From positions 496,001 to 560,000 of the forward strand of contig RSEE01000015.1 in NCBI GenBank assembly GCA_003971905.1: 64,000 bases of DNA, written 5' to 3'. Both the position numbers and the translations under genes were made by a program. The notes beneath the pieces are model-generated. The model was not told the origin of the DNA. It saw nothing but the letters and a program-made list of their open reading frames with translations, and did not search any database. This document shows, in pieces, positions 4,094-64,000 of the stretch (position 1 is its first letter; the number at the start of each line of letters is the position of its first letter). The DNA comes from Moniliella sp. 'wahieum' (Eukaryota).

Positions 4094-6190
4094 TCACTAG
4101 TCAAAACCCCTCGCGCCCATACCACCGCCACGCCGTCCTGGCCATAACCGTAACCAGCTTACATAGAGTAGCCAACCAGCAAAGCTAGTCATTAGCGCAT
4201 TCTAGGCGGTAGCATCACATCCGCCTTAGGGTTACGCGTTGGTAGGCCGCATGTCAGTGACTAGTGACTAGTGCTACTCGGCGCCAGTCAGCCTGGCATG
4301 GTTTTTTTCGCCTGTGCCGCACATTCTGTCTCAACGTCCCCAGTGAAAATGGAATTCTGTCCTCTACACACCACCCAACATTCTCTGTCCCACATAGGCC
4401 CTTCGGGCGGAGGCAGGCGGAGGTCTAAGGCATCCTAAGATCTAAGATCTAATCTCTAAGACCTAAGACCCGTCTCCTGCTTTGTCGAAACGTTATTGAA
4501 GCTTGAAGCTTGAAGCTTGAAGCTTGAAGGAAGAACGATTTGCGTTCGCCACCGGCTGACCACCGGGGACACTAGACCACCAAGCTGGTACTTCGGGAGA
4601 ACGTGAGAACACACTGGTCACTTGGGTCACCGGTCACCGTTCACTGTGCGCGGTCGCCAATCGCGCCGTGGCGAGCTGGTGACATGCATGTGTGACATGT
4701 GATGCCCTGAGGCTGGCTGTGAGTACTCAGACTAAGTGGGGAGGGTAGGCACCGAGGTGCGCGCTGAGGCGCTGAGGCGACTGAGTAACGGAGTACTGAT
4801 GCCGTGCTGAGGCCACAAGGTGCCGATCGCGTCCGGAGTCCAGAGTAGTGGGATCTAAGGATTGGAGCTATTAGTAGCAAAGAAACTGTATGCACCCCCT
4901 GTGCGTTAATTTTTTGCATTTGCATTGCAAGTTCCTAGCTGCACATCATTGCATCATCGACATCATCGATCATCGATCATCGATCATCAATCACCAGTCA
5001 CACTAGTAACTATAATTACTAGTGGCTGTGGAGCTAGTGAAAAGGCACCGAGTTACCTACCCTCCTACACCGATGGAGGGTCAAATTTATATCAGACTCG
5101 CTCCTGTCCATGCGCCTCTCCGTTGACGACGTTGACGCGTTGACGTCCAACCCCCCAACGTCTCAACGTCTCAACGTCTCAACGTCTCAACACACCTCTC
5201 TCAAGATCTGAGAGCCTTAAATGTTAAACGTCAACGCGGGAACGTTGAAATGGCACGTTCAACGTGTTCAACGCCGAAACACCACAGTGCATTATTCAGT
5301 TCACCGTTCACGCGCCGCGCTAGCGTCATTGATCGAATCGAAGACCTATAGGTCGACTAGCTTGGCTTAGGCAGGACAATCCCTTGCGATGAATGATTAT
5401 CGATTAATGATTACCAAATTGGATTTACATCAATCCCATGCACCCATAAGTTCAGACATACAATTCCCGCAGCGATACGCGAATGTGTCAAAGCTGCAAG
5501 AGGGGCAAAAGCTGTGGCAAGGAAAGGGGAGGGCATCGATTGTAGTCACTCGCGCCGGCATGTCACCGTGATGGTCAGCGAGCGCTCAGCGCGTCAGCAC
5601 GTCAGTAGAGCCCTGTGGAGCTTGGAGCCACACCCTGCCACACCAGGCCACGCCTTTATTAGCTTTACTCGTGCATGGTATGCTGTGGCTGAACACACAC
5701 AGCCATTGCATGTGGATAGATTGAATCGCCCCCGCACTGCCTCAAAACGCGCAGCGAGTAAGCCAGGAGTGCATCAGCGCCATCAGCGCGTTGGGACCCT
5801 CGACGGGCTGAGGAGCTGGGGAGCTGGAGCGTACTGGAGCCAGGAAGCACATGACTTGAAGCTACTAATGGAAGCATCTGGGACAGGAGAACAAGGAAGC
5901 GCTTTTCATCGACCTTCCTGATATGCCAAGTGAGTGATTGGGTGAATGAGATGGCGATGATCGATGATCGACATTATCGCTCAGGCGCTCAGGCTGAGCA
6001 GCGCGCTGGCTGATGCATGATGCATGATGATTGCCATGTGATGGATGTGATCGACACAGTGCCCCCCTGCCGGATCGTGGAGCGCGCAAAGCAAGCACCC
6101 TGGCATGTCACTGTTCCTGCTCCGGAACCCCGAGGCAGGGAATCACCTGCTGGATGTTGGAGTTGGGCAATTCTGAGATCTGAGATCTGA
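4094..6190. repeat. Dense cluster of 7-bp-period TNA-[palindromic 4-mer] arrays
   Basis: TGA CTAG (4258-4273), TAA GATC x2 (4436-4452), TGA AGCT x4 (4497-4527), TCA CCGG (4627-4636), TGA CATG (4693-4702), TCA TCGA x3 (4963-4986), TGA TGCA x2 (6011-6027), TGA GATC x2 (6174-6190). Also an 8-bp CAACGTCT repeat at about 5156-5191. Confidence 0.9.
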
Positions 6191-7072
6191 GATTGGAGAT
6201 GTGGGATTCCAGGTGGGATTGGTGCTTAGTAGCAAGGGTATCGCGTGCCACCGACTGTCTCGCGGGAAAGTCGAAGGAAATTAGCCCCAAAAGTCGGAGA
6301 AAAAGTCAACGCAAAACCAAGAGATTAATCTCTCGATATCGAGCATCAAGATCCACCAGTCGTACGTCCCGCGCCCCCAGGCCACCTTTGTCTCTGTCTC
6401 TCTACCGCCTCAACCACCAACGGCAACCGACGGGGATCTGTCGCCCTCAGTCTCTCTGAGAAATGGTACGAAAACCCATCAACAGTGATCGACACAGGAA
6501 AAGAAATAATGCCTCGATCGGATGGGAAATCGAATCCATCCAATGGTGCCTTCGTCAATTGTCCTGTGGGACGCGTATACACATCCCAGGTGTACCCCAC
6601 ACGGCCAAGCCGGGATTCGCAGGTTCAGCAGTGGTAGGGTCTACATTGCATGTTACCGGTTACCTGCCATTCAACCTCTCCCTTTCTCTGGAATGTCAGA
6701 TACCATACCACAGTCATTATCATGTTCCGTCTACTACTAGCCAGTTACGAGTCCATCAAGACTGTCGAGGTATAGAAGCAGAGGAGTGTTGAAAACGGGA
6801 GTACTCGAGCCAAATCGATGATCGTCTGATCGACCTCACCAACCTCATCAACCTATCAACCTCCCATATCAGCCTCACACCGATGTTGGCTCGCCTCGTC
6901 GATCATGAGTACCACGCAGATGGATTGGTTTATATCGACTGCATATTCAAGAAACAAAAAACCGCTGGCAGGAAGAGGATGCCGTGCGTGCCGAAGATGG
7001 TCTGACAGCGGTAGGGCACGGAAATAGGAAGAGAGAGCAAAGGGAGAAAAAAGAACGGGAAGGGGGTACGCG

Positions 7073-10733: not shown

Positions 10734-12726
10734 GGTACCTCCAAACGTGGTGGCAGTAGGTGGGAGAGAAGGGAAGATGAGGCAAGGTGGTGGTGGGCAG
10801 AACTCAGGCCGAAGGAGCCGCACGATTGGAAAGCAGGTAGCAATCATTAATCAGGCAAGCAGCATCGCACCGGCCAGCCACCCCACCACGTACGTCCGTG
10901 CACACTGGCGCCATGCGCCCCCCATGATTTCAAGGGTCCATGGCTTGGTTTCCGCTTGCATGTCCGCCTGGGCGTCAGGCCGCACAAGCCTCACATCGCG
11001 CCAAGCCGCCGTGGCAAACGTGCGACCTGGACTTCATCATCCGTCCTGGGGCCCCCGTGCCCTTCTTGGCACGAACCCGCATGGGGGCTCTGTCTGCCTC
11101 CATACTGCTCTGATGCTGCGCTGGTATTCAAACTGGCGCTGGGCCAGGCCAATAAGTCCGCATTCTGAGTCTGTCATTTTGGTACAAGTATACAATTTGC
11201 ATTGGTTCCTGTTTACCGTTCGCGTCTTTTCCCCGTCGCGGACAACGACGATCGGAGTGGCAATGCTTAATGCTTTCAGTGAACGAGGGGAGCAGGATAG
11301 GTCGACAGTTCGAATAGAGGGGCAAATACTCAGAGCTCAGCTCATCGATCACCGGTCATCGATCACCTCATTATTGTGTGCATTCCATTGACAGAGCTTA
11401 AGGCTGGACAGGGGGAACGCTACGTCTAAACCGAACCATATGCACTTGGTTAATTTGCTCTCCAGAATAATATAGCTGCCAAGAGTTTATTGGATGAGGA
11501 GACTGTGGGCGGGGCTTGAGGCCGCGGGGGCTACTACTTGGCGCACCTTTACTGGGGCGTGTTGGCGATAGATCCGTAGTTACACCAGCAATCGTTCTCC
11601 GCGCCCAAGCCAACCACGCCAAGACGCGGAACGATGTTAAAAGGCCCTGGCTGCTGCAATACTGGTGTGACAAAACGATTATTTCCTCCGGAATAAGACA
11701 CAGTGCACACCAAACACTCTCCGTCCTTCGGAAGCTCGAAAGAGTCATACAGTGTCATGAATTTCATTGTAGGCACCATTGTATTGCAGTCGTGAACTGC
11801 GAGCGCTGAGAGAGCCGAGAGGTGAGTCGTTGGGTGCTCGTTGAGCATGGTGAACTAGGACGCGGGCGCGATTGAGACAGCGAGACCCGCGAAACACTGG
11901 TGATTTTCAGCGTGAGACTCTTCAACTGAGAGGTTCAACCTTCAGCTTCAAGCTTCAGGAGCCTTCAACGTCTTCAATAACGTTCGCGTCGACCTTCATG
12001 TTCTTCAAGCCTGCCAGAATCCCTCACACTCTTCAATAACCCACACACCTCGCTATTTCGGACTTGTCAGACATCTGGATCTGATCTGTGATCTGAGATC
12101 TGAGATCTGAGATCTGACTATAGAAGTACAGTGACTGGTCTGACTAGCTGACTCGTTTGTCCGTCGGACCAGAGGCTCACACAGGCCGAACTTACTAGCT
12201 TCTCGCGGACATGAATGTCTCAGCAGTTCTCACACCATATATACTCTGTTGTATCCGAGCAGGCAGGCGCTTTGGCGTGACATGTGACACTCGGTGCATG
12301 CCATGCCTCACAAGCTGGAATCTTCAACCAGATTTTTCCGCCACAGTGTGCGCACTATGCACCTTGAACCATCGTTGAGGCATTGCATGGTACGAATGGT
12401 ATTCCTGCCTTCCGCATATTCATGGCTGTTGCACGGTATGCATGTCTAGTAGCGTCTAACGACTACGTACAATACAACACACGAACCCACACGCTTTTGC
12501 GGCAAGGCCAAAGCCAAGAACAAGTTGATTTTTGAATCGGGGATAGGGCCCGAAAAAGGAAGCATCTCGGAAAAGAGCACTTCAACCGCATACCATGCAA
12601 AGGTATTCAACTTTGGTCGCCGTCCAAAACGACAAAGAGCCGAACGGTTGAGGCTCGACAGCGTCCCTTCTTGGTCGCCAAGCCAATGGGCCAATGGTGC
12701 CGAACCATTTCCTCCATTGACTCCAT

Positions 12727-13556
12727 TTACTCCCAGGAGGTGATCGGCTGCTGAACAGCCGGGCAGCGTCGGCAGCCCAGTCCTGAGCGCCAGCGGCCGG
12801 CTCGCTCCAGTCCAGCGCGGCAGCCTCGGGGCGCCCGTGGCAGGGATGGCCTCACCAAGTTCGCCGGCTCAGCCTCGCGCTCAGCAGCGGCCTTAGCGTC
12901 GGCAGCAGCCTGCTGCTCAGCCTCGATCTCCTGCGGGTCGCGGTAGAAGAACATGTCGGTCATGACGCCCCACGGCTCAGTGCGCGAGACGGTGCCCTTG
13001 AGGCGGAGGACCTCACGGCAGAGGAGCCACCAGAGAAGACCGACCGAGTGCTTGCCCTTGTTGTTACCGGGGATGGCCACGTCGACAAACTTGAGGGGAG
13101 CGTCAGCGTCGGCGAAGGCAATGACGGGGATGTTGACGTAGGACGCCTCACGGATGGCCTGGTGGTCCACGCGGGGTCGGTCACCACAATGACGCGGGGC
13201 TCCTTGTAGGAGCGGACAATGTAGTTGGTGAAGGTACCGGGGGTGAAACGGCCGGCAATGCAGTAGCGCCAGTGTTCGAGGCGAACTTGAGCACAGCGCG
13301 CTGACCGTACTGGCGACCCGAGATGACGCAAATGTCAGCCGGGTTCTCAACCGCAGCAAGGATACGGGCAGCCAGAACGATCTTGCTCCACGTCTTGTTG
13401 AGGTTGATCAGCTGCACGCCGTCGGCGCGGCGTTGTAATGTAGGACTCCATGTCCTTGGTCACATTGGTGGTGCCAATGTGGGTCTGGGCAGCGAGGAAG
13501 AGTTTGACCTCCTCCTCGGTGATGTTGAGGACCTGGGGAAGCTTGTCGGCGGACAT
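12727..13556 (-). CDS. RPS0: 40S ribosomal protein uS2 (S0/SA), frameshifted in this assembly
   Basis: [109 protein letters not shown]. No coding intron evident. Confidence 0.96.
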
Positions 13557-13653
13557 TGCGATGATGGACAGGCAGGCAGGGACGCGTGGGGAGAAAGGAA
13601 GAGAGCGGAGCAGGCACTCGTGGTGTAAAGGAACAAGAAATGGGGCGATGACA

Positions 13654-13754
13654 TAGGGTTATACTCGCTAGCACTGGGGAAGTGCATCTTTTCTATTTAT
13701 TGCGCCTAGTTCTCGCCGCGTGAACATTGCCTCCCTGGTCGTCCTGCACGTGAT
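13654..13754 (-). promoter_or_regulatory. Candidate RPS0 promoter elements: telobox TAACCCTA and E-box ATCACGTG
   Basis: TAACCCTA on the gene strand (13654-13661) and ATCACGTG (13747-13754), about 100 and 190 bp upstream of the ATG. Motif match only. Confidence 0.35.
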
Positions 13755-14284
13755 GGGCTTTAAATTTCAGCCCTCAAATTTCAAAGTCCTCCCCTCCGCT
13801 GAGCGTATCACCCATGTCGCCGTCACCGGTCGCAACCTTCTCTTGTCTATGTTCAACGTTCGCGCGTTCACGGCCCATATACCAATCAGTTTCTCTCTGC
13901 ATTCGGCTAGCTGTCACAGGTTGTAGCCAGGCATGCGGTCGCCCAGAGTTGTGTACTTGCCGGATCGATACATAGAAATGATGGGATCGGGTTGTATGAG
14001 CCTTGGCGGGGGGATGTACTTTCCCACCATCGACATGCATCCTTTTTGGCCACCTCTCTTTCGAAGGTCTCTTTGTCTCATTCAAGTTCTTCCATGCTCT
14101 CTATCTGTTCAACTGAACGGCACACTGAATGAGCAGAGTGACATGCAGTAAAATGGATTTAGCAACAGCCCACAAGCTGGGTGTACAAGAAGCGGCGGCG
14201 AACAGGGCCAATACCCACCCCAAAGGAAGTCGGAGGAGGCGAGGGGAATGACCACGAGGGCCGGATTCGCATGCAAACAGATAA

Positions 14285-17336
<3,052 letters not shown>

Positions 17337-19224
17337 CACGGGTGGGAGGGGAGGAAGGGAAGCGGGCATAGGAGAACTTTAACGCCTTTTTGCGTTAAAG
17401 CGTAACGCCCGGGCGATGTCACACACCCTCGCCTCAGCCTGCATTCCACGTGGCCCGAAGAAGCAGCCATGTCATCGATGAGGGGTGGTGGGTGATGCGG
17501 CGTGAGGCTGAGGCTGAGGCCCTGCGGCTGAAGGTGGACAAGGTTCAGACCCCCCCCAGCACCAGTGTGGCGTGCATCATGCATCGTGTCCACTGGCTGG
17601 GATGATTGGCCCGTGGCTTCGGCGCCGCCTCCCAAAAGTGGCCGGCGGGGCCAGGCAGCGCCACGTGGACTGCAGCGATGTCGCGTGCCATCCATCACGT
17701 AAGCATCGGTGTGATACGCTGCTGTGATGTCCCCCCGTGTCCCGCCTGCAAGGTCCTTCGCGTTTCCTTTCCGCCCGTCACACACCGCCATTAACGATAC
17801 TTGGCCAGGCGAGGTGGGGCGAAGGTAGGAGACGGGCGCACCGACGGTCGCGCCACCAGCGCCCGCCTTGTGGCATGTGACATGACGACTTCAAATAAAG
17901 CTGCTGGATGACTACGTTGACAATCTTGAGACAGGAGGGGAGGGCGGGGAGGAAAAGCGAGAGACGAAACCATGTGGACCGTGGGAATCAAGTCGCACAA
18001 GCCTAAACAGAGGTCGTATAGGAATTAAAGTGTCTAAAAGGGGAAGCAATACATATAGAAGTAAGCTCTGTCAATGAAATGGACGTGATATAGAAGTGGT
18101 ATAGGGGGGAAGGGAGAGAAGCAAAAAGAGGTTGCAGACGAAAGATAACTAGTACTGTTCCCAAAAGGGGTAATGCATAATGAGTCTAAACGAAGATATC
18201 GGTTCACTTGTAGACAGTGTAGGAACGAGCATCGTGAAGAAAAGGTGCCTGGGTCGGGGCGGCTGTTGAGATGTCAAGGTCAAATACCATGTTGGGACCC
18301 GCGGTCCCGTACATAGGCCAAGGCGCCTTAGGCCATAGGCCTTATCGATTATCTCGATTATCACTCTTTGCCCCTTAATTGACCTCCGAAGCCTGTTGGA
18401 TGTGTATACTCGGGCTTGTTTGAACCCCTGTCTCCTCTAGGTGTTGCATAAGGCTTAGACCTTGCTTTTCGCTGCAGTCGAAAGCAGTAAGGAGTACTAG
18501 ATTTTGAAGAAACAGATGAGTCGATGAGGCGAATGCAGCAAGGAGAGCCTATGGCTCATCGCGCTCATCATGGCTCGCAGACCCACATTTTGGCTCGTAA
18601 CATGTACATGTGTGAAATTATATGTAGTGTCAACGAGTCGCTTATAGAGTCTTCGAGTCACTAGTCATCGATCATCATCATCGAGTCATCATATCTTCGA
18701 TCATTAATTGGGAAAAAGATTTTGATGTATGTCTTCTTCCCTGTAGTATTCGACCACAAACCTAAAGCGGTAGCCTTACTATGTTTTGCTTCTCTCACAT
18801 TAACCTTACCTCTCAGATCATCGATCATCTCTCTCAGATTACAGGCTTCGATTGAGCTTGAATATTGAATAGTGTCTCGTACGTTATGCATTGGTGGCTA
18901 GTAGAGACTCCTGGGGCTACTTCTGGGCCCTGGAAGAACAGCGCCACGCGGAGGAGCAACATCCGGAGCGAGATAGAACGCTGCGCCTCTTGGCAATTTT
19001 TTCTGAGGAAGTAGAATATATAACTGATGGCGATTCCCACCCTCATCAGATCGATCGTCGTATAGCTCCACCGCCACTGCCATCACTCTCACGGCTGTGC
19101 CTCTTCCTTTTATTCTCGCCCTTTTTACTTTTTGGGGTCTCTATCTGTGTTGTACCGCCGTGAATAACCACCCCCCCCTCTCCCTGTCCCTCAATTGTCT
19201 CCCCCTTTCCTCCCTCTTACACAC

Positions 19225-20288: not shown

Positions 20289-22501
20289 AGATGTGCCACG
20301 TAATTTGTGGATCGCATCGATCTCTATACCCCCTTCTTTCTCTGTATATCCTCTGTTGTTCCCACGCTGTTTACGCTTTGCACGCTGAATCTCCCTTTAC
20401 GACCACGGCGCAGTTGAAGCTCTCATTCATTCGTCCCACCTTCACAGGGCGTTTGTGTGCCTCCTTTTTCACTTCACCCTTTCGGATACGCTTGTGTGTG
20501 TGGGCAGAGCAGAGCCCACAAAACATGGCAGCATACGTTCAGTTTTACACCTCCGAGAAAGTGTTCAGTTATCACGGTCTCATCATGAGAAAAGGGATCG
20601 CCCTCTTCTCCCTGCTCCTCCTTCTCCCTTCTCCCTTCCCCCTCTCTCCTCTTTGTCTTCCTCACCAGTGACTGGTCCGAGAGGGATCTTGTTTCACCAC
20701 ACCTGACCTCATTTGTTCCTCGTTTCGTCATCATCGTTCATCTCTCGACATCCTCTCATCCTGCTGTTTTTAACGTGTTTAACGTCTCTATACGAGGCTC
20801 ACGATGGCCTCAATGACCCTTCTCCCTTCCTCTGGAAGTTTCCCTTGGTAAATACGACAACCATTATTACCATACACGCTTTTTTCGATGCAGTCCCCTT
20901 TTGTACAGTATCGGTCCGGTCGACATGCTCCTATCATAATCACACCCACACCAGTCTCGTCATATAACTGGGAGAGTTTCCGCACTGGGGAAGAATAAAC
21001 CAACGCTATCACCATAGCTCCGCTACGCTAGTCTTGTATGCGTACACTATACCGCAAGTCCCATCGATCATCACATGCACATCACATGTCACAGGCTTCA
21101 GTCCCTCAAGCGCTAGTAAGAACTAGGCCTTATACATGCGTTGTTGGCGTACAATAGCCCCGCATTTGCTGCCATCTGTTGTATGCGAGGCCGCATGTCA
21201 CATGGTAGACATGCAATAGCCTTTCGGCATAGCAATGGTCCAGGGTATTGCCACGGTGGAAAGTGCTATTAGTAGGATGGGCTAGCCGAGATAGAGAGCC
21301 CCCCCAAATATAAAGCTTTCGAGGGTAATCCGGTAGTATATCTCTGAACCGACAACCTGACCAGCCACAGACTCGCCTTTTTGGAAACGTGTCATGCATG
21401 TCATTGGCCCGTCGGAGCTTGGATGGAGAAGCTAAACGCGGGATGGCCGTCGGGGGGACAGGCCTTTGGCGCCACAAAAAAGGACGCGACCACGCTGAGA
21501 CACACCTATACTATGAAAGCAGACGGAGAATCAGCCTGGGGCCATGATCGGCCTGTGATCGCTCAGCGCGAGCACGAGCGGTGAACGTGTTGAACAGTTG
21601 AACGTTGAACTGCAAGTGCCACCCACAAAAGGCAACAAAACCCCACAGTCCATATTCTGTCCTGTGTCTGCTGAGGCTGCCGGGCGCGGCAGGGCAACTG
21701 TCGCGGCGACTCGTTTTTCAGCCGAGAAGTTGCCGACCCCACACAGTGCATTGCCCACTGTGGCCCTATCCTATTTCGCAGAGGTACAGGCACATATGTT
21801 TGTAGCGTCCAAACATCCGATCGCCCACGTCACATGTCACACTGGCACAGTGCACACGCCGTTATGTACTCTTGTACATTCCCTTGCCCATTGTTTCTCG
21901 TGCCTTGGTATAGGTAGCCGAGCTGGTATAGAACAACTCGTTATTTTACCAAAAGCTTAAAGCTTTGGACCCCTTGAAGCCTGGAGAGCTTGAAAAGCTG
22001 GAAGCTGGAAGCCGAAAGCCAGAAGCGACATTTTTTTGGCCGTTTTCTCCGGACAACATACGCCCACTCGAGTCCGGTCCGAACATGCCTGGGCATCCAT
22101 TGTGCTTGGCAGCATAGACAGGCTAATTGGGACCATCAGCTAGTGCACGCATTCGTCGACGCTTGAAGCTTGACCTCTCGATGTCTGATGCATGATCGAT
22201 TTATCGCCGCATTACAGGCACTATGTGCATCACCCATCAACTTTCAAAGCTCTCTGGGACGCGAGAGATCCATACCGACGCGTGACGGTGGCTATTCTGG
22301 CTAAGCGCTGATCCGCTGATCCTCTTTGATCCTGCATTGAAGAGGGAAGCCGTACGCCATATAAATGGTGCACCTTCCCACCCAAAGTCGACCCTGCACC
22401 GCCACCGCGTCCTCCCCATATTGGCGCCTCACTCCCCCTTCACTCTTCACTCCAATCCCCTTTCACTACAGCGGGGGCCAGTTCCTTCCATCACTGTTAC
22501 T

Positions 22502-39834: not shown

Positions 39835-40362
39835 ATAAGTGTTTTGCGGTGTGGGCTGGTTGGTTTTGTGGCGTTTACTCAAATTCAAGTCCTTTGATGC
39901 TCTTTTGTCCGTCGGATGCAAAAGCGTGCGACCTATAGTTGTTGCTGATGCTGGCGTGTCAGCCTGACAGCTCAGCCTGGGCCCTACTGCAGATACATGT
40001 GCAGGTCGGAGAGAGAGATGATGGTTGAACGTTGAACGTTGACGGTTGATACATGATACTTGATGGACGAACGGGCGCTTAGTATTCTCCCCATGTACGG
40101 GGGATGGGACGGAGAGCGTATCATGTACCAGTACCGAGGACCGAGTATGCAGTATGGATCAGCAACCTGGGACTGGATCGAGAGAACGGTTAGTACTTAG
40201 ATGGACAGACAACGAGTTCCTGCAATTAATATGCAAAAACGTTATGCACAAAAACATATATGGCTGAGATCGGGCATTGCACACGCCAATAACATGTACC
40301 AGCCGCATTCTCTTCGAACTAGACGATTCTTCTTTCTTCTTTCCTAGCAGAGTATATCCGTC

Positions 40363-40423
40363 CGTTTTCCAACCTCGTTTTCCAACCTCGTTTTCCAACC
40401 TCGTTTTCCAACCTCGTTTTCCA
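40363..40423 (+). repeat. 13-bp minisatellite (CGTTTTCCAACCT) x4.7
   Basis: Perfect copies starting at 40363, 40376, 40389 and 40402; partial copy at 40415. Confidence 0.92.
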
Positions 40424-43101: not shown

Positions 43102-44409
43102 TAGACGCAACAAGGAGCGCAGCATATTTGTATGAAGGGGCAAATTGTGTCAACATGTCAATGGCCGATTCCTGTTACAGCGCACTAAATGAAATGAGAT
43201 CGGTGCAATCTCCCACAGCTGCTGGGGCCCCTTCTCGAGCTTGAGACACCCAAAGCCCCCTCCACGGCCTCATCGCGCCCCATCTTAATCTCATCCCCCT
43301 CTTCATCGCCGCTAGCAAAATGGCAAGCGTAGTAGCCAAGGGAAAGGGAAGGGGAAAGGGCAAGAGCCAATAGAGAGATACTTCGGCACTATGAGCGCAC
43401 GGTCCAGATTCCTGCAGATGACAGCTTCCATTCTAATTACAGAAGAAGGTACACAGTCATCTGTGCGGTCTTCATGGATCGCACAGAACAGATGTTTTGG
43501 ATGAGAAGATCGATGAAGAAGACAGCCATGACCACGAAGCCGTCACCCCTGTGCTACGGAGAAGTTTCTGCAGTATCAGCACAAAGACAATCGTAGGGTA
43601 GCCGTTATTTGAAGGGCGCGCCTAGCCCGCCGCCGTGGCCAAACGGATGCGGGAAAAGAGGGAAGAAGAGGCGGGTGGTGACTCGGGAGAAGCATGTTCT
43701 TAGCGCGCGACAAAAGACGACCGCGGGAAACGTTGTTGTCGAATAGTGAGAGACTAAAACGCAACAAGGGGACAACGCCTCTTCCCCCTGTGGTCCACGA
43801 ACAAAAAGGACAGGGAAAGAACTCCCAAGATGATCCAGAAGTCATTTGCGGTGCGCGCTTTGGTGTGGTTCAACAAGAAGCAGTTATAGCGATAGTCGAT
43901 ACAGGAGGAACTTGGCGACCGTCACCGGGTCACCGATTCCAGCAGCGCCGCGGCAAAGCGCGGCTTTAGGTGCACCCTGAGGCCTGATGCATGATTCGGA
44001 CATGTGCATGACAGCTTTTCCGATAAACCGATTATCTTATCTCACGAATCTATCCTGAAATTGAACCGCCCGAACGTTGGTCCCTCATGCACATGCAGCA
44101 TGCACCATGGACGATGTACTGCCACCTCTGGCTCTTCTGCTCTTTCCTGAGATCTCACGCCTGCTCGGTCCATCAATCTGTCCACCAACTGAGCGACTGA
44201 CATGTTCACATTCACAACACTGGGGTGCTCCCGAGGCGAGTCATGAAATGCAAGTACATACAAGACACGGACAGTGCATCCATCTCTGGTGGCAGGGCGA
44301 GCAAGGTGAAAGCAAAGCACATCATAGGGAGGTGGGGATGCATCGGCTGTACCTGTGCCTGTGCCTGTGCGTTCGAGACAAAAGGTATCACCTGACTGGC
44401 GCGACCAAT

Positions 44410-45396: not shown

Positions 45397-46156
45397 CTTG
45401 GCCGGCTTCAAGGACAGCGGGGGGGGGGGGGGGACAACGGCACGGGGTGGTGGGGGAAAGAGCAGGACAGCGTCGAGCGGGCGGCGGGCGAAGGAACACA
45501 GACAGAGAAGATTCGCTGGCTGCTGGGCGGCCCAGCTGGCACGCGTGGGCGACTGCCCGGGTGCGGCTGCCGCGCAGAGCGAGTGTGCCGGCAGCTGCAA
45601 TGCGGGGGGCACGTGGGCGCTGTCAGCAACGCGTATGTCATCAACTCGCGATCACCCGCCCGGCTGAGCGACGGGCAGCGCGGCGCCAGTGTGGCGGCAG
45701 TGCGCTTCCGGCGTGCTCCGAGCCGCCAGGGCAGCCAGTGGCCTTGGCCGCCGCCTGCCGCTGCACGCCGCCGCCCCCTGTCCTCTTCTCACGCTGCGCA
45801 CAAAGTTTGCCGCGGCAGTGCAGATAGATGGTCACCGGTCACCGGTCACGGGGCAGTCGATAGATAGAGCACGAGCCCAGCCGCTGTTTGGTAAGCCGCT
45901 CCTCGGCCAGTAACTAGTAAACCTAGTAAACGTTAAACGTTGCCAGCTGCACCACCCCGGCTTTACAAGGGAAGGGCAGCAGAGCATGCTTGCCCCAGCG
46001 AGAGCGGGTCGGTCGGCTATGTCAGGTATAGGTAGGTTTCGCTATGCTGGACGAGCTGCCACCAGTGTGCTCGTTGAATCGAGCAAGAAGCCATTTTCTT
46101 CTCTTGCCACAGGATCAAGTCCATACTCACAGTCCATCGTATCTACCATCCGACCT

Positions 46157-51015: not shown

Positions 51016-51888
51016 GGCGACAAACTCTACCCAACATCCAGCAGAGGTCGGGGGGTGGGGAGTAAGTACATGTGCATGGGTAAACGAAAGTGAACCTACC
51101 AAGCTTGCTTGACACGACGCCCACAAGAAGTAGATGATAGGAAGGGGTACCACCTTAGGCAACGCCGAGCCCCCCGCGCTCCCCCAGCATCGAGCACCAA
51201 TCGGCACGATGCATGGTGCATGATGCATGGTGCATGATGTATGACGCGTGACGAGAGTGGCGGAAACCATGAAGCGGAAATTGTCGTGTTTTCAAAGTTG
51301 CTTTTTCCCTGCCGTCGATCAGTCTCGCGTCTGCGCTACGCAGGTCTGAGATTCTGAGATCTCAGTCCGACTTGGCCTGGAAGCTGGCCGGGAGAAGAGC
51401 TAACCCGATTGTGGTCGGACGACCAGGGCCACCGCGTGCTGAAGCCAGCCCTAAGGCCTAAGGACCTAAAGGGCTGACGCGCTGACGGGTCTCTACGTGA
51501 CTGGCCTGAAATGCGCTGACAGCGCGACATTCCTATCCCACGATCAATGGAGGTAGGGCCTACATTTCCATTTTTACGTGGTCCCCGACCTACCTAAACC
51601 CAGTTTCCCGAGCGGTTCAATCGCCAATCCGTCTCGCTCACAGCGCGCAAAGGGAGAAGGGGAAGCTGATGGGTCCATTGTAGCACATGCCACGGAAGGG
51701 GACGTGTCTTTCCTTTTGTTGTAGGCGACCAATTGAGCGCGGCCAGTGACTAGTGACTAGTGGCGCCGACCATACATCCTTCGTACTAAGACTCAGTAGT
51801 ACTCATCAGGCTCTGGTGCGGCGGTGGTTCCTGCAACCCAGAATGCGCCCGTTCAGTATGACGGCCACCATTTGTTCATCTGGCGACC

Positions 51889-52748: not shown

Positions 52749-53212
52749 TTATGGGCTGGTTATAGCATCGACCTCCTCGAGGGCCTGTTGAAAATCGCGT
52801 TGGTGGGCAAGGAGCTAGATGAGAGCAACACTTGTCAAGACATGGTGGACGATGAGGGGAAGTAAGAGGGGGGACGTACCATGGCGTAGGTGACTGGGCG
52901 CTCTTCCGACATGCCCACTGGAGCAGGAGGCTCTGGCGGTGCGGCCACGACCTGGCCCCAGTCGAGGGCGGGATGGGAATCAAAGGAAATCTCGTCAGGG
53001 GTCAAGCCCAAGTCGTACTCGCCATCGCGGTGCTCATGTTGCCACCGGTAAATTTCCTTGAGCGTGCCTGGTCCCTCGGGGCCGTACTCATACGAGGGCT
53101 GGGTGAGCAACATGGCGTCGCCGGCAGCAGGGATGTTGATCAAGAGATCGCGGGAAGCGCCAACGAGAGCTGCGACGAGCACCACACCACTTCCCACGTA
53201 TCCAATGCGCAT
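52749..53212 (-). CDS. Small acidic, probably secreted protein (122 aa, 2 exons)
   Basis: MRIGYVGSGVVLVAALVGA signal-like start. Removing intron 52785-52879 (GTACGT...CAACAG) gives an in-frame ...VTYAM|ALEEVDAITSP*. Confidence 0.65.
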
Positions 53213-55853
53213 CAGGCCTCAGGCGGAGGCGCCCCAGGTCGAGTCAGGGATGGTGGGGGTCGATTGGGCCGGGGTAGCGGTTGGATGCACGTCGGTGCTC
53301 CGCATCCAAGCCTGCCGTTGGCTGCCGGGTACATGTTATTGCGCTGACGCGCTGACGTGTGTGACGGCGGCGCGGGGATGCGTGATGTCCTGCCCAGCGG
53401 GACAGCGGGGCCCAGCGCCCAGCGCCCAGCACCCAGCAGCACCCAGCGCCTAACGCCCACAACGCCCCTCGGTTGCTGCGGCGCCTGGTTTCAGATTGCA
53501 CGCCCACACGCCCCCCCAGCCGCCTGCAGCCGTGTGCTGCGTGCTGAGGTAAGGGCGAAGCGTTTGTGCGCTTTAGAGCTCGGAGCAGCAACTAGTAATC
53601 GGTAACTGGTACCCAAGCTCGCCCCACTCGCCCACTCGTGCTGCGCCTGCTGCGCCCCGCTTGCGCACCCCAGCCCGGTAGCCGTCTTGGAGCTTGGCGC
53701 TTGGGGCTAGCTCTTGACGTTCGACGCCACGTCTCGGCGCCACATGGACCCCACAAGCGGCCGGCAAGCAGACCATGGTCTGCGCAGCACCGCGTGGGTT
53801 AAGCGCTTAAGCGTACGTTGAACCCCGAGGGGGCATGGTGCACACTTTTATTGCACGTGTTCAAACGTTCAACGTGTTCAACGTTCTCTGCATAAAGACG
53901 GTCAGGCTGTTCTTGTCGCATTTCCCTTCCCCATATGCTTCCCCCCCCCCCCCCCCTATCTTGTCTCGTAAGCGCTTAAACATCGATACCCTTCCGTTCG
54001 GGCGATTGATAGTGCATGTATTAGCCGTACTACACCCCTATGTTCCCCACGACCCTACCAGTCATCTCCTTCGGCTCTGCAGACTTATGCTTCCCCTCCT
54101 GTCGATCTGATCGGTATCCTGTTCGACATTGTGGGGGCCTTTATACAATTACACTGAGGGATTTCTCTCCTCCCCCCCCGCCCCACTATGCCAAAAGGGA
54201 CACAACTACGGCGTTGTCAAAAAGCGACTTGTCGAATGATAAAAGCCACAGTATAGAAAGCACCTGCAATAAAGCTTTTCCTTCCCTTTCTTCCTGTGCA
54301 CACACGTTGACCACAAGGGGCAGATAGGACGAGTGACGTCCAAGGTCACACTCATCTTCTTCCACATGCACTGGCACCATGTCAAGATCCCCAAGATCTT
54401 CATCCGCGGATGTCGTAAAAGGATATGGAGACGGGGAAAAGGATGAGGATCATATATTCATCGAATGGAAAAAGGGGGCGAGGTATATATGCCTCGGAGA
54501 AGAAGAGAACATGCGAGAATCATATGGAGAAGGAAAGGGGAGCATAGTCAAAGGGGGAAAACAGGGTCTAGAACAAATCAGGGACCAGTCAACCTGTGGT
54601 GACTAGTGACTCCTAGCTAGTAATCTGGCTTCGATCTAACTCGTGTTTTCTCTCTCCCACTGCGTAACTGCATTGAGGACTACGTCGCTAAATAAGTCGC
54701 TAAACCAGCATCATTGCCATACACGGTCGTAGAGACAAAGCGAAGCGCACCCTTATCGCAGAGGCGCCGCTTCTCTGCCCATTATATATACAGTGAATGC
54801 GACATCATGGCCAAACTTCTGCGTTTCTTCCTCCGTTACGCGTTACGCAGCGTTACGCTGCGTGAGCGTGGTGCGAACAAGATATTTCCGAAAGTGTCAC
54901 TACGGTACCGTTGTGGTCCCTTGCAAAGTGGATCATGTGAGGGAGAGACTTGTTGATCAGACTGTGTAGTGGGACATTAAACGGCCAGAGAGGAACAAGG
55001 ATAGACTCGATGTGCGCCCACCAGCATCTGTAAACAGATATGATGAAAAGGAGGTGCGGTGCCATATGTGTTCGGGCCGGCGGTGGACGGTGCGCCCGCT
55101 GAGCGCTGATTCCTACAACTCCCCCCCCCCCTCGACGGTCTGGAGCAAGGGTGTGACAGGCGGCGCATCTGAGATGCCGTCTGACATGCTGACGGTATGT
55201 TGACAAAACGTGATCTCAAGCATCAAAATATTGGAAGACCGACCCGGAGGGCAGCACAGGGGAGAACCTGGGATCGACGCTGTGCTGACCCACAAGCACA
55301 CCGTGCCGCGGGCGCATACCCTTGTGTGTGCGCCAAACGCAACGCGTAAGGCCGACGCCATCACCTGACACTGACGCGCTGACGGCGCTGACGCCCAACG
55401 CGTAACATGGGCCATGACATGCAGCGAGACACGGCGGATGTTTTTCCCAGGTACCCCCCACTATGCATGTGCATGATTGCCTTACTAGCTCCCTCGGGCC
55501 TTAAGTCTCAGGCCTGGCCTCCCTAGTTCCTATAAGCACTGCTCACAAGCGAGTCACTAGTCACTAGTCACTATCACTCTGTTTGAGCATTCCTATTACT
55601 GGCTGTGCGGGGCCCCAAGAATGTGGAGAGATCTGAGAAGATGCGAGATGGGTGATCTCGAGGATCGAGGATCGCCGACCGGTGAAAGCGGTGAGGAGCC
55701 GAGGTGGGCCCATGGGAGACTGCATACTGGCCCAGTCGCGGGACAAGCGTGAAGCCAGGCCACTGGCTTGCACTGGTGCAGTGCCGATTGGGGTTCGAGG
55801 TACTGCTTACTAGGCGCTAGGGTTAGGGTTACTGCGCTAGCTAGTCACGCCAG

Positions 55854-55949
55854 TCGGGCCACAGAGTACCGAGGTCAGCAGACCGAAGACCGAATCTCGC
55901 TTCGGGCCACAGAGTACCGAGGTCAGCAGACCGAAGACCGAATCTCGCT
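55854..55949 (+). repeat. Perfect 48-bp tandem duplication
   Basis: TCGGGCCACAGAGTACCGAGGTCAGCAGACCGAAGACCGAATCTCGCT at 55854 and 55902. Confidence 0.92.
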
Positions 55950-56352
55950 ATTGGGAATGCAGAGTACTGAGACTGAGCTACGTAGAATGCTGGGGCAGAT
56001 GCACGGACAGGCATTGCCTTCTGTTGCACACGCGTATGATTGCCTGACACGCCGACGACGGAGATGGGGAGAGAGAAAGAGTTGGACGACCTAGGTAGGA
56101 ATGTTAATGAGGGCACGAGCAAGAATGCTTGCTTGAAGCTTGAAGCTTGACCCGCAGCTGGCTCGAGCATTGCGCTGATGCGCTTACGCGCTTACGTGGA
56201 TCCTTAATCCGTACTCTGCGCCGCCAAGCTGCAGGCTAAGCTGCAAGGCAAAGGGCAACAGTGTTGTGACCATTCTCAAGACACGTAGCTGCCACACAGG
56301 CCACCTATACTCAATAGGTAGACATGGCGACGCACCTTCCCCCAACACCGTG

Positions 56353-57579: not shown

Positions 57580-59697
57580 TCGGATCCGCGGCTCTCGGTG
57601 GGCGTATACCCCTCATTTTGGGGCGGGTTCTCTTTCCCCTCTCTCAGCATAATCGAGCTGTCCGGCCACCATCTGGTGCCTCAGTGGCTGTGATCCCACT
57701 GGCACCCGTTGGCTCTCTCTGGCATTTGTTTATTCCCCTCTCTACTTTGAATGTTGACTGTTGTGCCAATAAACTGTAAACGCCATCAACGATTACGACT
57801 CTATTTTGCCAATATGATTGTCTCTTCCGTGTGTGCTGTTTGTGGGAGGGGGGGTATGTCATTGTAGCAGTTCTGTCTTTCGTTTCCAAGCCAGAGAGGC
57901 CACGCGAATGAATTCGGATATGTGGTCGTGCGATATGTCATTTTTTCGATGGGCTTTTGCTACCAGTCGCCTATAGAGGAAGGTCGGCTGGAGGAGAACA
58001 TGAAAACAATGTGTACTGGTTTTAACGATTGACGCAGCAACGGAAGGTGCTTGATGAATGCGGACACTCCTGATATGAGGGGTTGTGAATCGGCGATTTA
58101 CTGGATAAGCTCAGCTCAGACCCCCCTAATCCTGTTGATCGACTGCGATTACGCCGATTACCGCGGGCTGTTCGGACGGGAAAGGTGGAAAAATGGGTGA
58201 ACTTTTGACAAGCTTGAAGCTTGACAGCCTTGTGGGCGCGGGGCATGAGGGTATGAGCGAGCTTCTTCGGTTGATCCAGTGCGGCATGCGAGGGCTTGCA
58301 GAGTGCTTCTGTCGTTCTACTGGGGGCGGACGCGCGTGGACGGGTACGTGCGCGTGGCGCGCTTGTACATGGATCTGTCAATAGCAGCTCCTCGGCTGCA
58401 ATACAAGAGAGGTCCAAATGACCAAGAGCCGAGGAGCGTCTGAGCTCCGCTTGGAATGGGGCAAGCACCATGGCAGCAGAGACGGCAGGGTTAGATCTTA
58501 GATAGCGTCAGATCTCAGATGCGCTACATTGAAGGCAGCCCACCCTCGATCTCACCCAGTCGTGCCCACAGTCGTGCCAGCGTCGTGCCCAGGCGGGGCT
58601 TGGCCAGTGCGTGGCCAGGCATGCAACACAACACCCGCACCGCCAAGCCTGCGTGCAGGCCGCACTAGGCCGCACTCTGCCCCCGGCCTCGCTATGGCTG
58701 CTGCGGCGCGCTGCGGCCGTGCGCGAGCAGCCACGGAACACGTTGGCAGCGCCGCAGGCAAGCCCAAATCTACAGCTGTATGGCTCCACTGCGGGCGCCT
58801 GCCCAGTGTGCTTCGGCCATGCTCCGTCCTGCACAGCGCCCAGGTGCCTCCGGGGCGCCGATCCAGCGCCGATCGGCCGTTGACACGGCCCGCATGCCGG
58901 GGCCTGCCACCGCCAGCGGCGGCTGCAGAACGCCTGCAGAACTTTATTCGTTCCCCTTTGTATGCTTGGCCACTGGCCACTGCTGCACGTACTGATCGAA
59001 CGGCCGTCGGCGCCACGGCAGAGAGTTCCTAGAAGCCTCGCACCAGGCCACAGCCGCAGCCAAGGCAGGCGCCTCCTCGCATGTCGCATGTCGGCCTGCT
59101 GCAGCAGGCAAGAGTGGCCGACTGGTGACTAGGGGCGAGGAACCGGTGACGCGCCGGCCGGTGCCGGCCGCGCACAGTAGCCGGGCTCAGATGGCACAGG
59201 GACAGTGTGCAGCCGGCCGCGCTCGCGCGGCTGAGCGCCGATGCAGATGCAGGGCTCCTGCTGGCTCCTGCTGGCTGGAGCTGCGTGTGCAGCACCAACA
59301 CCCGCCCGATTGGCCCGGCGCCACACCACACTGCGCACCTGCCGCTGAGGCGCGCACTCGCCCCCTGGCCCCCATGCGCACCTCGTACGGCGACAGTGGC
59401 GCGGCCGCCGTGTGCTGTCGTGCCCCCCGCCCCCCTCGGGCACCTGGCCAGCGTCGCCTGCCCCAGTCAAATCCACCCTCCGCGCGCGCCCAGCAGCACC
59501 CCCCGCCCAGCCCAACCCGCTCGCCCGTGGGCTCCTTGGGCTTTAACCCCCGAGCCAGCATAGATCTCCCACTCCTCCTCCCCCCACCACCCTAACCTCG
59601 CTCCTCCCCGCCGCCCGTAGCGTCACGCGCCGGATCGTGTGTCCTCTGCCCCCTGCACCACCATCCCTGCACCACCACCCCACGCTCTCTACTCGCC

Positions 59698-60974: not shown

Positions 60975-61765
60975 CGTTCCATCTCTCTGTTGGCGCGTCC
61001 GTTCGTTCCGATTTCCATTCCAATTCCCTTTCCAATTCCCGTTCCTATAACGTCTTGCCCCTGGCCCGCCGGGTTTTTGCCCTGCCACCCGGGCCAGAGG
61101 ATCGGCAAGCTGGTCTTGTGCTCTTTCCTTTCTGCTCTTTTCTTCTCCCAAGGATACCTCATCTTGGCACTCGCATCGACGTTTTATTTTCTAGTTTTCT
61201 TGTGCGGTGCGAGTGCTGGTGATCCGGTCTCATTGTCTTTCTTTGCAGCCCGGTCCCTTTTCCTCTTGCCTTGCATGATGCATCATTTGATGGGAGCAAT
61301 GGGATCTTGCAATCTATCCTCCATCTAATTCGCTCCATCTCAGTTGGATGAACGTAGCTTAGCATAGTTCAGCTTAGCTTAGCGTTTCGAAGGCTCTCAG
61401 CTTGCCAACAGAAACACAGCGAGTTGGGGCGCCAAGATAGTGGCCCACTAGGGAGGGGTTAAGTGGCCCTCGCCTCTCCAAATCCCAACTCACCTTGGCA
61501 TTCTGTATTACCAATCAGCTGACCTACCTGAATCCTAGCCCAGTCGTACACTGCACCCCTATACCGTTTGGCCCCAACTGCCGCGTTCACGGTACGTCGC
61601 CACTCGGCGGCACACACCACACACCTGCGTCACTAGTCACTTGAGCAACTTGAACAATCAATTTCTGTCTACTTCCTCGCACCAAGCAAGGGAGGGAGAC
61701 AAAGAAAGTCTTGGTCTTGGTCTTAATCTTAGGCGTCGAGGTTACGACGTTCCTAGGTTACTAAG

Positions 61766-62518
61766 TTACTCGTGGTGGCCGTACTTGAGCAAGCCAGCCT
61801 TAGACGCGCGGAAGTGGTTGTCGGCCTTGGACCATTCGAGCACACCATAGTACAGCAAGCAAGCCGGTACCACCGCCCACGCTTGGCGGCCCGCACGAAT
61901 GACGAACCACTTGGCGTGGTCACGGATCATGTGCCGCGTGATGCTCACCTGGTTCGGCGACAAGGCTGAAAAAATGCAACAAAAGAGAAGACCAACGTTA
62001 GCCACCCAGCCTACCAAGAGGTACCCATCCCAAGGCCGCAGGCGTATGGAGGGGGAGCATGGCGCCGCAGAGGGCATCCAAGGGCGACAGGGAAAGGAGG
62101 GGGGGGCAATAAGCTTGCAAGGCCAATCAAGGACCAGCACCGGAGCCCCCCCCTTACATTACGGACCCAGCCACCCTGCCCACCGCAGCGCAGGCCGTGT
62201 CCAAAGGCGCCCGCGACGTAGGGGAAAGAAAGGACATACTGTAGGTGATGATACCACGCTGAGCCTGGCCGACCTGGCCGTAACCAGAGATGTTGCCCAC
62301 CATCCGAGCTAGACGCACAAGCAGCGTACGAGAGAAGAGAGGCGGCAGAGGTCAGTGGACACACTCAACAGAGAAGGTGCGGAAGGATGGGGCCAACGGG
62401 CCAACGCAGGCAGGAAGCACGGAAGCCAAGGCGGGGCACAGGGAGGGAAGATACGTACCCACTTGACGTACTTGGGCGCCGGGGGGCCGCCGCTGAGAGA
62501 AGGCTTCGAGGGCTGCAT
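61766..62518 (-). CDS. QCR8: Cytochrome bc1 complex subunit 8
   Basis: Three exons (introns 62309-62458 and 61966-62239): MQPSKPSLSGGPPAPKYVKW|LGWWGN...QRGIITY|TLSPNQ...RAGRQAWAVVPACLLYYGVLEWSKADNHFRASKAG. Needs one extra G in a homopolymer at about 62297. Confidence 0.88.
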
Positions 62519-64000
62519 CGGGGCGAGAGGGGGCGGGGGAGGAGGTGGAGGTGGAGGTGGAGGTGGAGGAAGGGCAGAGCGCGGCCAACTCTCAGCTGCG
62601 CGGCGTTTGCCGTTTCCTGGCGATTCCTGCCACCCGGGCCTGCCCACACCGCCCGCCGCGCTCCGAACACCCGCCGGCCGCACGCCGCCAGTCCCGCCCC
62701 AGCCATTATTAATGGCAGCCAGCTCAGGTGTCGTGTGAAATCTTTCAGTGCCATCGGTCACGTGATACCTCGCTCACTTGGCCACTTGTAACCACAGCGT
62801 AACCAGAATGCGTCGTCATTAACGTCATTGCACATTGCCCACCCAAGTGCATAATGGGGGTCAGCAACCGGTCGGCAGTCGAGCGGAGGCGCTGCTCTCC
62901 CCTTCACACGAGTAGCTGCGCGCCCACAGGAGCTTATGGACACGAAGTAAGAGTACTGGCAAGCCCAGCCATTCTTGCCAACACAGCAGGGCAAAATGTA
63001 CCCCCCCCAACAGGCCTACTCTCCCAACTTGATAATGCAGGTACTGCATGACGGACTCTGGCGTAACGCGTAACGTTGGACCAAGGTCTCGATGAGCGTG
63101 GGAGCATCGATCACTCCAAGCGTCATGCATCAAGCGCTTGACCTACCATTGTTCCCCCAAACGTCGCGCACGTCATGACGCGGCATGCGGGGCACGTTCG
63201 CACATTTGCTACTTATAGAATTCGGGGAGAGGGTGGGGAGGGGGGGGGCAAGGTCCTATAGCGTGGGGTACCAGGGAGATTGGTCATGGCAATGGCCTGA
63301 AGACTATATATAGCTGCCTGCCGTATACTCTACCGTGACGGAGCGTGAGACGGTACGGACCGTACTATTTTTGGTGCGGCGGTCCCAGCCTAACATGAAC
63401 CGTGAGAGTTTGCGTGGGAGCAGGCTCAAAACAGCGCTCATACTCACAGCTCAGAGAGGTGCTCATCGATCATTCTGCTGCGTCTACTTTTCCCTCCGCG
63501 GGACACGGTAACGCTTGAGAAGCTTGAGTGAAGGTGAAGGCTTGAAGCTTGACGCTTAATGCTTGAAGGATCCCCTCGGGTCCGCCAGGAAGGACACTGG
63601 ACTGAGCAAGTGCGCACTTAGCGCCCCAGCAGCACGGGCAATGCGATTGGGTGGGCACAAGAGGCTGGGACGGCGGCTGTGGGGAGTCTTATTATGCACC
63701 CCTTGGGAAGCTTGAGCTTGAGCAGGCGGAAAGAAGTGTCGAAAGGGAAAATAGAGGCTGGGAGAGGTCAGCACTGAGAGAGCCGGCGCGGCGTTAAATT
63801 GCGCGGTCGACGGCGGGGACGAGAGAGCAGGAGGAAAGGCAGTGCCAGGCGGGCCTGATCGGTCCACCCGGCCTTGAGGCTCAGGCTCAGGGCGCAGCAG
63901 CGAGCCAACGCGGGCGAGGTCGAACGAAGAGGCTGAAATCGAGTTGCGCCTCACCTGACCGGGCGGGCTGGGGGCAGTGTGTGGCGTTGAGCTGTCGCGC

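Follow-up and report, generated by a model that had tools for sequence, protein, structure and literature searches.

Repeated TNA triplets around palindromic tetramers in intergenic DNA of Moniliella sp. 'wahieum': candidate excision scars of a hairpin-forming transposon

The closest described counterparts of the sequence pattern reported here, which recurs in the intergenic DNA of a 64,000-nucleotide (nt) stretch of Moniliella sp. 'wahieum' (contig RSEE01000015.1 of assembly GCA_003971905.1, positions 496,001 to 560,000; hereafter the window), are the footprints that DNA transposons leave behind when they excise. For the hAT superfamily these footprints are short deletions or palindromic insertions of P nucleotides that result from hairpin resolution, and in a given host one or two, or a few, products predominate (PMC5873905, available sections). 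In the canonical hAT palindromes the centre is the complement of the base that adjoined the element (PMC5873905, same sections). Hairpins on the flanks are formed by hAT, Transib and RAG and have been demonstrated for the MULE Muta1, whose hairpin (43+43 nt) has strands of equal length and most of whose excisions in yeast are precise (PMC5499845, available sections). Among basidiomycetes, a 2025 survey describes in its accessible part hAT families with duplications of 7 base pairs (bp), named hAT7, in Pucciniales. It also reports Kyakuja (KDZ) elements, which duplicate 7 bp as well and end in CA..TG, from all five Agaricomycotina orders where TET-carrying transposons were found (PMC12730594).

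The units of the window consist of a TNA triplet (N being any base) that is usually directly repeated on the two sides of a palindromic tetramer (pal4). The direct repeat is limited to 7 bp with TNA at its centre, the spacer is an inverted copy of the P-nucleotide type taken from either side, the copies form a trimming series, and coding sequence is avoided. We propose, with a probability of about 0.6, that the pattern represents accumulated excision footprints of a hairpin-type transposon with a 7-bp, TNA-centred target, which were secondarily expanded into heptamer arrays. No description of a TNA-palindrome-TNA pattern was found in the literature searched.

Anatomy of the TNA-palindrome units

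The window contains 221 TNA-N4-TNA sites, which were compared with 100 dinucleotide-preserving shuffles of the same sequence. Sites with a palindromic core and the same N in both triplets numbered 100, against 2.21 ± 1.38 in the shuffles (maximum 6). Palindromic cores with different N were found 15 times (5.27 ± 2.08 shuffled), non-palindromic cores with the same N 54 times (35.5 ± 6.0) and non-palindromic cores with different N 52 times (85 ± 9.9). The pattern in intergenic DNA, which had been put forward in the original prediction together with a proposal to count it by core, by N and by coding status against a shuffled background, is thus real, with the palindromic same-N class enriched and coding DNA depleted. 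The excess had been estimated by eye as roughly 80 units against about 10 expected by chance; it does exist, and its size had been understated. All 21 example coordinates given at that time, which represent 15 cores, were recovered in the computed list of unit chains. It also holds that 15 of the 16 palindromic tetramers serve as cores and that TATA is missing from the 7-bp class; a TATA core is present in an 8-bp unit at 54450 and in a compound unit at 5081.

When each of the 64 triplets W was placed in the frame W-pal4-W (n=211), TGA accounted for 47 sites, TCA for 37, TTA for 9 and TAA for 7, and every other triplet for at most 8. The TGA and TCA forms are one pattern, because they are read on opposite strands. 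No TNA excess was seen in the window when the palindrome between the repeated triplets measured 2, 6 or 8 bp.

Coding-like segments, derived from a rough codon-usage map that is crude and surely misses several genes, make up 30.4% of the window. Only two of the 100 units lie wholly within them, in line with the earlier statement that nearly all units fall outside coding sequences, and for the non-palindromic TNA units the figure is 8 of 54. The view that symmetry and spacing are conserved, and not the core sequence, is likewise correct. The 15 cores occur at near-background usage: if xy denotes the two bases that follow TNA, no core among the 82 loci has a share below 0.25 or above 2.5 times that of its xy after TNA in the background. 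Moreover, the identity of the core co-varies with the bases that flank the unit.

Single units make up 68 of the 82 runs and arrays are the minority. In these 68 the run of matches at a 7-bp offset peaks at 5 nt (22 units) and 6 nt (16 units) and is shorter than 7 nt in 55, and the two extra matching bases are one-sided in 42. The typical single unit is therefore a 12-mer (5+2+5) of the form TNAxy + y'x' + TNAxy, whose spacer is the reverse complement of the preceding two nucleotides. When the 42 one-sided units are oriented by their extension, G and C are equally frequent as the central base (17 units each), and the process therefore appears symmetric from both sides.

The 12-mer is the first member of a series that can be written, on either strand, as (k nt + TNA + xy) + y'x' + (k nt + TNA + xy) with k=0, 1 or 2, and which was counted against 50 shuffles. 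Period 7 (TNAxy + y'x' + TNAxy) gave 120 matches at 68 loci with a shuffle mean of 0.22; period 8 (qTNAxy + y'x' + qTNAxy) gave 22 matches at 17 loci with a mean of 0.04; and period 9 (pqTNAxy + y'x' + pqTNAxy) gave 13 matches at 12 loci with a mean of 0.02. The 7-bp period of the original prediction is consequently the commonest class, though not the sole one, as the related periods are 7, 8 and 9 bp. The repeat itself is capped at 7 bp with TNA, a small palindrome of odd length, at the exact centre: TNA was in register in 13 of 21 matches with a repeat length of 7 and in none of four with a length of 8, and leftward extension was zero in all 13 period-9 matches (by chance, extension would be expected in about a quarter). 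All classes merged, there are 88 scar loci that cover 1378 of the 64000 bp (about 2%), or about 1.4 per kb, and one of the 88 lies in coding-like DNA.

The spacer was also studied from the direct repeats nnTNAnn, of which 35 have a spacer of 0 nt, 12 of 1 nt, 13 of 2 nt, and two each of 3 and 4 nt. With a roughly estimated expectation of about 2.5 per spacing, they are enriched only at spacers of 0, 1 and 2 nt. The 2-nt spacer is the reverse complement of the adjacent two nucleotides in 12 of 13 cases (left copy 5, right copy 6, both 1) and the 1-nt spacer is complementary to the adjacent base in 11 of 12, compared with 7 of 124 for control 7-mer repeats that have no central TNA. Where the spacer is absent, 33 of the 35 repeats are palindromic 7-mers, which are the arrays, and two are plain duplications.

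Some related short motifs were observed besides the units. Perfect 10-bp palindromes of the form TNA-pal4-TN'A occur 12 times (4720, 17472, 28798, 29269, 31221, 32275, 44148, 51355, 51978, 53800, 53969 and 61276), and the xy expected directly after them is present in only one of the 12; a possible origin is a scar whose inverted tract is longer and whose second target copy was lost. With the scars masked, 200 of 2307 TNA triplets (8.7%) still have a 4-bp palindrome directly after them, compared with a rate of 6.1% over all triplets, and this residual excess outside the 88 loci could consist of orphan half-scars or decayed units. The hexamer TNATNA with the same N was found 58 times (37 ± 5.8 in shuffles), and imperfect runs of TCA/CAT triplets lie at 4952-4989 and 18665-18704, beside or inside scar chains. 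Both could be joints that lost the outer bases of both flanks.

An excision model and its rivals

In the excision model, a cut-and-paste DNA transposon would insert at a 7-bp staggered cut centred on T-N-A, and nnTNAnn would thereby be duplicated. On excision each flank would be sealed as a hairpin exactly at the boundary of the element, and the host would open each hairpin about 2 nt off its tip, leaving two P nucleotides with the reverse-complement sequence of the flank's final two bases. Opening at 2 nt from the tip, with two P nucleotides, is typical of hairpins. A blunt hairpin opened in this way would carry a 4-nt self-complementary overhang, xyy'x'. The ends would then be joined while the other copy of the duplication loses 2 nt (the commonest outcome), 1 nt or 0 nt, which would produce periods 7, 8 and 9. 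Put in terms of the overhangs, one kept and the other removed would give period 7, a partial trimming of the other would give periods 8 and 9, and retention of both would give TNA-pal4-pal4-TNA.

This scheme would account for several peculiarities of the units. As the core is made of the two bases beside TNA plus their inverted copy, any palindromic tetramer can occur, and the near-arbitrary xy excludes cores supplied by fixed transposon termini or by protein recognition. The palindromes would be even because hairpin strands of equal length, as in Muta1, give even palindromes. The joints have on both sides a target duplication of fixed length, with the cap at 7 bp and spacers of 0 to 2 nt; their P nucleotides come from either flank; and small flank deletions are present, with 2, 1 and 0 nt lost at 68, 17 and 12 loci, respectively. 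Such a combination is the standard mark of transposons whose excision seals the flanks in hairpins. The near absence of scars, which would shift the reading frame, from coding-like DNA also counts in favour of the model. Among the alternatives listed in the original prediction it is the scars of a cut-and-repair process that gain support, from the TNA-centred 7-bp duplication together with the inverted 2-nt copy.

A number of points weigh against the proposal. A search of the 64-kb window revealed neither an element with inverted ends flanked by TNA or nnTNAnn nor a transposase domain among its 209 open reading frames (ORFs) of at least 110 amino acids, and resident copies of an element with the same duplication were not seen within it. 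The spectrum of outcomes is unusually uniform and narrow for host repair, since the repair of hairpins is usually more varied. Plain duplications that have no P nucleotides are at chance level (the two of 35 cases with no spacer), and joints that carry the P nucleotides of both flanks, a variant which we tried and rejected, are rare, with one TNA-pal4-pal4-TNA against 0.2 expected. The palindromes are even, that is, centred between two bases, and the standard hAT mechanism does not fit them. The density of the scars implies very many fixed excision events. In addition, the same 2 nt follow again after 6 of the 13 period-9 matches; we read these as second events, and a plain 9-bp tandem duplication would look alike. 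Finally, a nuclease making 7-bp staggered cuts at TNA with no transposon involved would leave the same scar.

That last possibility is the strongest rival, although we regard it as unlikely. An endogenous nuclease, for example a domesticated transposase, would make 7-bp staggered breaks at TNA in open intergenic DNA; both overhangs would be filled in, so that the 7-mer is duplicated, and a turn-around or hairpin would add two inverted bases before end joining. It explains the duplication, the central TNA and the inverted 2-nt spacer equally well, it agrees with a window that has no resident element, and the uniform outcome suits a reaction fixed by an enzyme. Nevertheless, complementary 7-nt overhangs would mostly be re-ligated with no scar, and the two inverted nucleotides require an extra ad hoc step, whereas flank hairpins supply them directly. 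No such process turned up in the literature searched, and we know of no nuclease process with 7-bp staggered TNA breaks and scars of this kind.

Less probable still is that the units are hairpin-prone heptamer microsatellites, in which a 6-bp palindrome plus one base arises and expands by replication slippage, since replication and the removal of flaps stall at self-complementary repeats. Perfect short tandem runs are indeed over-represented at period 7, where 65 were counted, compared with 19 for period 8 and 14 for period 5. A 6-bp palindrome is found in 36 of these 65 (10.4% expected), in 34 of them as A-NNNN-T plus one more base. The arrays have a length of 7k+5 and reach 4.9 head-to-tail copies, and the longest folds as a single strand (4492-4534, -9 kcal/mol, z-score -4.67). 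Against this, most loci are single 12-mers with a 5-nt repeat: two complete head-to-tail copies are lacking in 55 of the 68 single units and occur only in the arrays (33 tandem palindromic 7-mers). The inverted 2-nt spacer recurs in the 8- and 9-bp classes, the repeat never grows beyond 7 bp around its central TNA, and some chains have mixed cores. Single and period-9 units fold no better than shuffles (z-scores -1.23, +0.80 and +0.09), and the structural signal suggested in the original prediction, such as a hairpin or cruciform, would accordingly apply to a few long arrays and not to the single units that form the majority. Nor are period-7 TGA repeats generally palindromic, since in unrelated viral contigs 321 matches to chains of five TGA at 7-bp spacing gave only 42 palindromic cores out of 1284.

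Slippage may still have a part in the excision model, as a secondary process. The first scar would create a palindromic 7-mer, y'x'TNAxy, and a further event at that site would yield an identical unit whichever flank gives the P nucleotides; replication slippage would also add 7-bp units to the first scar, and both routes would lead to arrays. Slippage probably lengthens the arrays, and array growth would thus be secondary to the scars. The mixed-core chains at 11342 and 43978 do not come from slippage of a single unit, because their cores differ within the chain, and the composite site at 45909-45938 reads as two successive events at one site.

We consider it very improbable that the units form a regulatory or chromatin grammar, read by a dimeric or polymerising factor or by paralogs on 7-bp-spaced TNA with a symmetric core, as had been offered as one explanation. 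The units do lie in intergenic DNA, in the 5' and 3' regions of many genes, and the flanking triplet is highly specific. What argues against recognition by such a factor is that there is no conserved recognition sequence among the 15 cores, that two bases outside the unit determine the core, and that one spacer rule is common to periods 7, 8 and 9; a rule of any base pair plus its complement is unreadable by a protein. Readings as heat-shock elements or bZIP-type sites were rejected, as neither the direct repetition of TNA nor the changing core agrees with them. The suggestion that the units are targets or products of modification or restriction-like enzymes recognising 4- or 6-bp palindromes deserves almost no credence, for although the cores are classic restriction-type palindromes and the A-core-T hexamer prevails in the palindromic runs, 15 cores leave no single specificity, the palindrome already follows from the inverted 2-nt copy, and the 7-bp direct repeat and the trimming series are left unexplained.

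Other models of the joint itself were also tried and rejected. A 3-bp TNA duplication with filler from the element terminus, in the style of PIF/Harbinger or CACTA, fails since the repeat reaches 7 bp and the 15 cores copy the flank. An asymmetric 5-bp duplication (TNAxy) was superseded when the 8- and 9-bp classes revealed a symmetric 7-mer. A variant with a single P nucleotide in the 7-bp class is near the expectation for decay, as among 54 units the inner pair alone was complementary in 13 and the outer pair alone in 16.

Distribution in the window and occurrence elsewhere

The window is nuclear DNA of an intron-bearing fungus, with a G+C content of 49-66% in 2-kb bins. Its 209 ORFs were searched against Pfam, and besides the pyruvate carboxylase listed in Table 1 the genes recognised encode ribosomal protein SA (RPSA), a P-type cation ATPase, an opsin-like protein, RNase T2, a mitochondrial carrier, SNF5, UPF0220 and UcrQ. 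Among 4852 matches to the mitochondrial phosphate carrier, the best are the carriers of Tilletiaria anomala (78% identity) and Acaromyces ingoldii (74%), and for this reason the host is taken to be an Ustilaginomycotina-like basidiomycete.

Table 1. Positions of scar loci, of representative scars and of one neighbouring gene in the window; loci are those of the merged list
Feature	Position	Strand	Remarks
21 scar loci	3670..6664		One long non-coding stretch downstream of pyruvate carboxylase; merged list
7-bp arrays	4497-4529, 6011-6029, 6172-6192		Within 3670..6664
8-bp array	5162-5191		Within 3670..6664
9-bp units	5257-5272, 5772-5787		Within 3670..6664
Mixed 7/8/9 chain	4944-4988		Within 3670..6664
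Longest homogeneous array	4497..4529		TGA+AGCT repeated, end TGAAG (7k+5 bases)
Typical period-7 single scar	3868..3879	+	TGAAG + CT + TGAAG
Pyruvate carboxylase	7076-10850	minus	Several exon-sized ORFs, Pfam
6 scar loci	10842..13785		Between pyruvate carboxylase, RPSA and P-type ATPase genes; includes array 12092-12117
Mixed-core chain	11342..11365	+	TCA-TCGA-TCA-CCGG-TCA-TCGA-TCA; in the TNA-pal4-TNA set, outside the strict 5+2+5 set
Typical period-8 scar	12140..12153	+	CTGACT + AG + CTGACT
7 scar loci	18171..18870		Between divergent ATPase and opsin-like genes
4 scar loci	21082..22173		
9 scar loci	25285..26604		Upstream of RNase T2; arrays 25285-25303, 25589-25607, 26201-26221
8 scar loci	28379..30639		
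Period-9 scar, both 7-mers intact	28379..28394		CTTGACT + AG + CTTGACT; repeat not extended on either side
6 scar loci	40024..40968		
3 scar loci	43148..43987		
Mixed-core chain	43978		GGCC/TGCA
Array GGTCACC x2.7	45830..45848		Directly upstream of mitochondrial phosphate carrier
Composite site	45909..45938		Minus strand GTTTACT + AG + GTTTACT + AG + TTAC; 9-bp junction then 7-bp junction, same 7-mer
4 scar loci	51242..51758		
11 scar loci	53212..56196		Mixed 8/9-bp chains at 53859-53882, 55371-55393
3 scar loci	58213..58519		
4 scar loci	61630..63552		
Period-9 scar	62814..62829	+	CGTCATT + AA + CGTCATT

None of the 88 loci falls in the segment 30640-40023 (about 9.4 kb), which is rich in G+C (53-64% in 2-kb bins) and contains many overlapping Pro/Ser/Arg-rich ORFs on both strands, the first Pfam match being a DUF3533-like ORF at 38501. 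This scar-free segment may hold long genes or be a different chromatin domain. Repeats of other kinds were also noted in the window. A 9-bp repeat of 7.6 copies (98% matches) lies at 38953-39020 within the DUF3533-like ORF, and a perfect 13-bp tandem repeat of 4.7 copies at 40363-40423 in non-coding DNA. Long imperfect hexamer and triplet repeats (CTGAGC/GAGCTT, then CTG) at 49236-49559 encode Q/A-rich runs (QAQAQA...) in an ORF upstream of the SNF5 domain.

The pattern was also followed in a metagenome sample of 120 loci (687,645 bases) chosen for three TGAAGCT units. Since these loci were selected on one array, they hint at a wider occurrence and do not measure it. The flanks of most of them had no further units, and the 15 loci listed with most extra matches had at most a few separate extra sites each. 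Locus L162 contains the extra units TGAGATC and TAACCGG and a 9-bp unit, and chains with mixed cores are present in L184 and L145. In the fungal contigs L134 and L141 a CTGAGCGC array, a TTGAACGT unit and a TGAAGCT array follow each other with matching order and spacing. Besides a NACHT protein, L134 encodes an intron-split PEPCK. Its 90-91% identity to the enzymes of Serpula and Pisolithus places the contig in an Agaricomycete.

The one non-array candidate of kb scale examined in these loci for a resident element, a 5.9-kb span in L137, was rejected as a chance match, because about one is expected from 24,140 pairs and long ORFs cross both of its supposed ends. L162 (1-20024) contains at least three tandem copies of a gene block about 5.6 kb long, with ORFs that have AAA_11/AAA_30 helicase domains, and scar-like units stand between the copies. 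L149/L150 (30% G+C), from an AT-rich, unrelated organism, carry at about 13146-13226 a 9-bp array, ATTGATG+CA, of around ten copies that obeys the period-9 formula.

Significance and comparison with known systems

We tentatively raise the possibility, which we consider less likely than not, that a single lineage of hairpin-type transposons, its 7-bp target centred on TNA, or else a nuclease descended from such an element, has been active enough to write about two scars per kb of non-coding DNA in this fungus. If this were true and the window typical, the genome would contain tens of thousands of scars, and these would be the main source of its heptamer microsatellites and a measurable builder of its intergenic sequence. 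On this reading, the signature in the Agaricomycete contig is a hint of a process that would be common across Basidiomycota and so far unrecognised.

On the same supposition the scars would be a natural genome-wide record of how hairpins are opened and joined in this fungus. If the excision model itself is correct, excision scars can build up to about 2% of a 64-kb region, where they can give rise to microsatellites and prevail among the short repeats of intergenic DNA, and they would offer a catalogue of the repair outcomes of hairpin-ended breaks in a non-model basidiomycete. A specific element would be predicted, with a 7-bp nnTNAnn duplication and blunt flank hairpins. What seemed a regulatory code would be the fossil trail of transposon traffic, and anyone who searches for motifs or annotates genomes would have to reckon with scars that look like a cis-regulatory grammar.

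Heptanucleotide microsatellites resemble the arrays of the window in their head-to-tail 7-bp copies, up to 4.9 in number. They differ in that most loci here are not arrays, that the unit is fixed as TNA plus a palindrome, and that 8- and 9-bp forms follow the same rule.

Among transposons, hAT elements such as Ac/Ds and Hermes are alike in that both target copies are kept, with short inverted copies of the flank ends and small losses (PMC5873905, available sections). They differ in the length of the duplication, which is 8 bp in hAT and here 7 bp with a central TNA, and in the geometry of the palindrome, which here is even (xy/y'x') and keeps the flank base itself, while in hAT it is centred on the complement of the adjoining base (PMC5873905, available sections). 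A canonical hAT element of the Ac/hobo/Tam3 type was rejected as a candidate on these two grounds. The setting is also different, as the scars of the window occur en masse in a wild genome and hAT footprints at one reporter locus.

V(D)J coding joints and the excision of Transib or MULE elements share with our proposal the flank hairpin, whose off-centre opening gives short even palindromes. Transib and RAG duplications measure 5 bp, and those of MULEs usually 8-10 bp. The 7-bp duplication thus differs from all of these, and the largely precise excision of Muta1 in yeast is a further difference (PMC5499845, available sections).

The hAT7 and Kyakuja elements come nearer in host and target, since they combine basidiomycetes with a 7-bp duplication, which here is deduced from the scars alone; the contig L134, which bears scars of this type, likewise belongs to an Agaricomycete. 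The accessible text of the survey does not mention Ustilaginomycotina (the terms Ustilagin, Ustilago, Tilletia and Exobasidiomycetes each occur zero times) and reports no consensus for the targets of these elements and no excision footprints, and the searched parts of its supplementary file hold consensus sequences and no duplication sequences of hAT7 or Kyakuja (PMC12730594). The mechanism is of a known kind. Neither the target nor the even 2-nt palindrome is described in the literature searched, and this applies most of all to the density of 88 loci in 64 kb.

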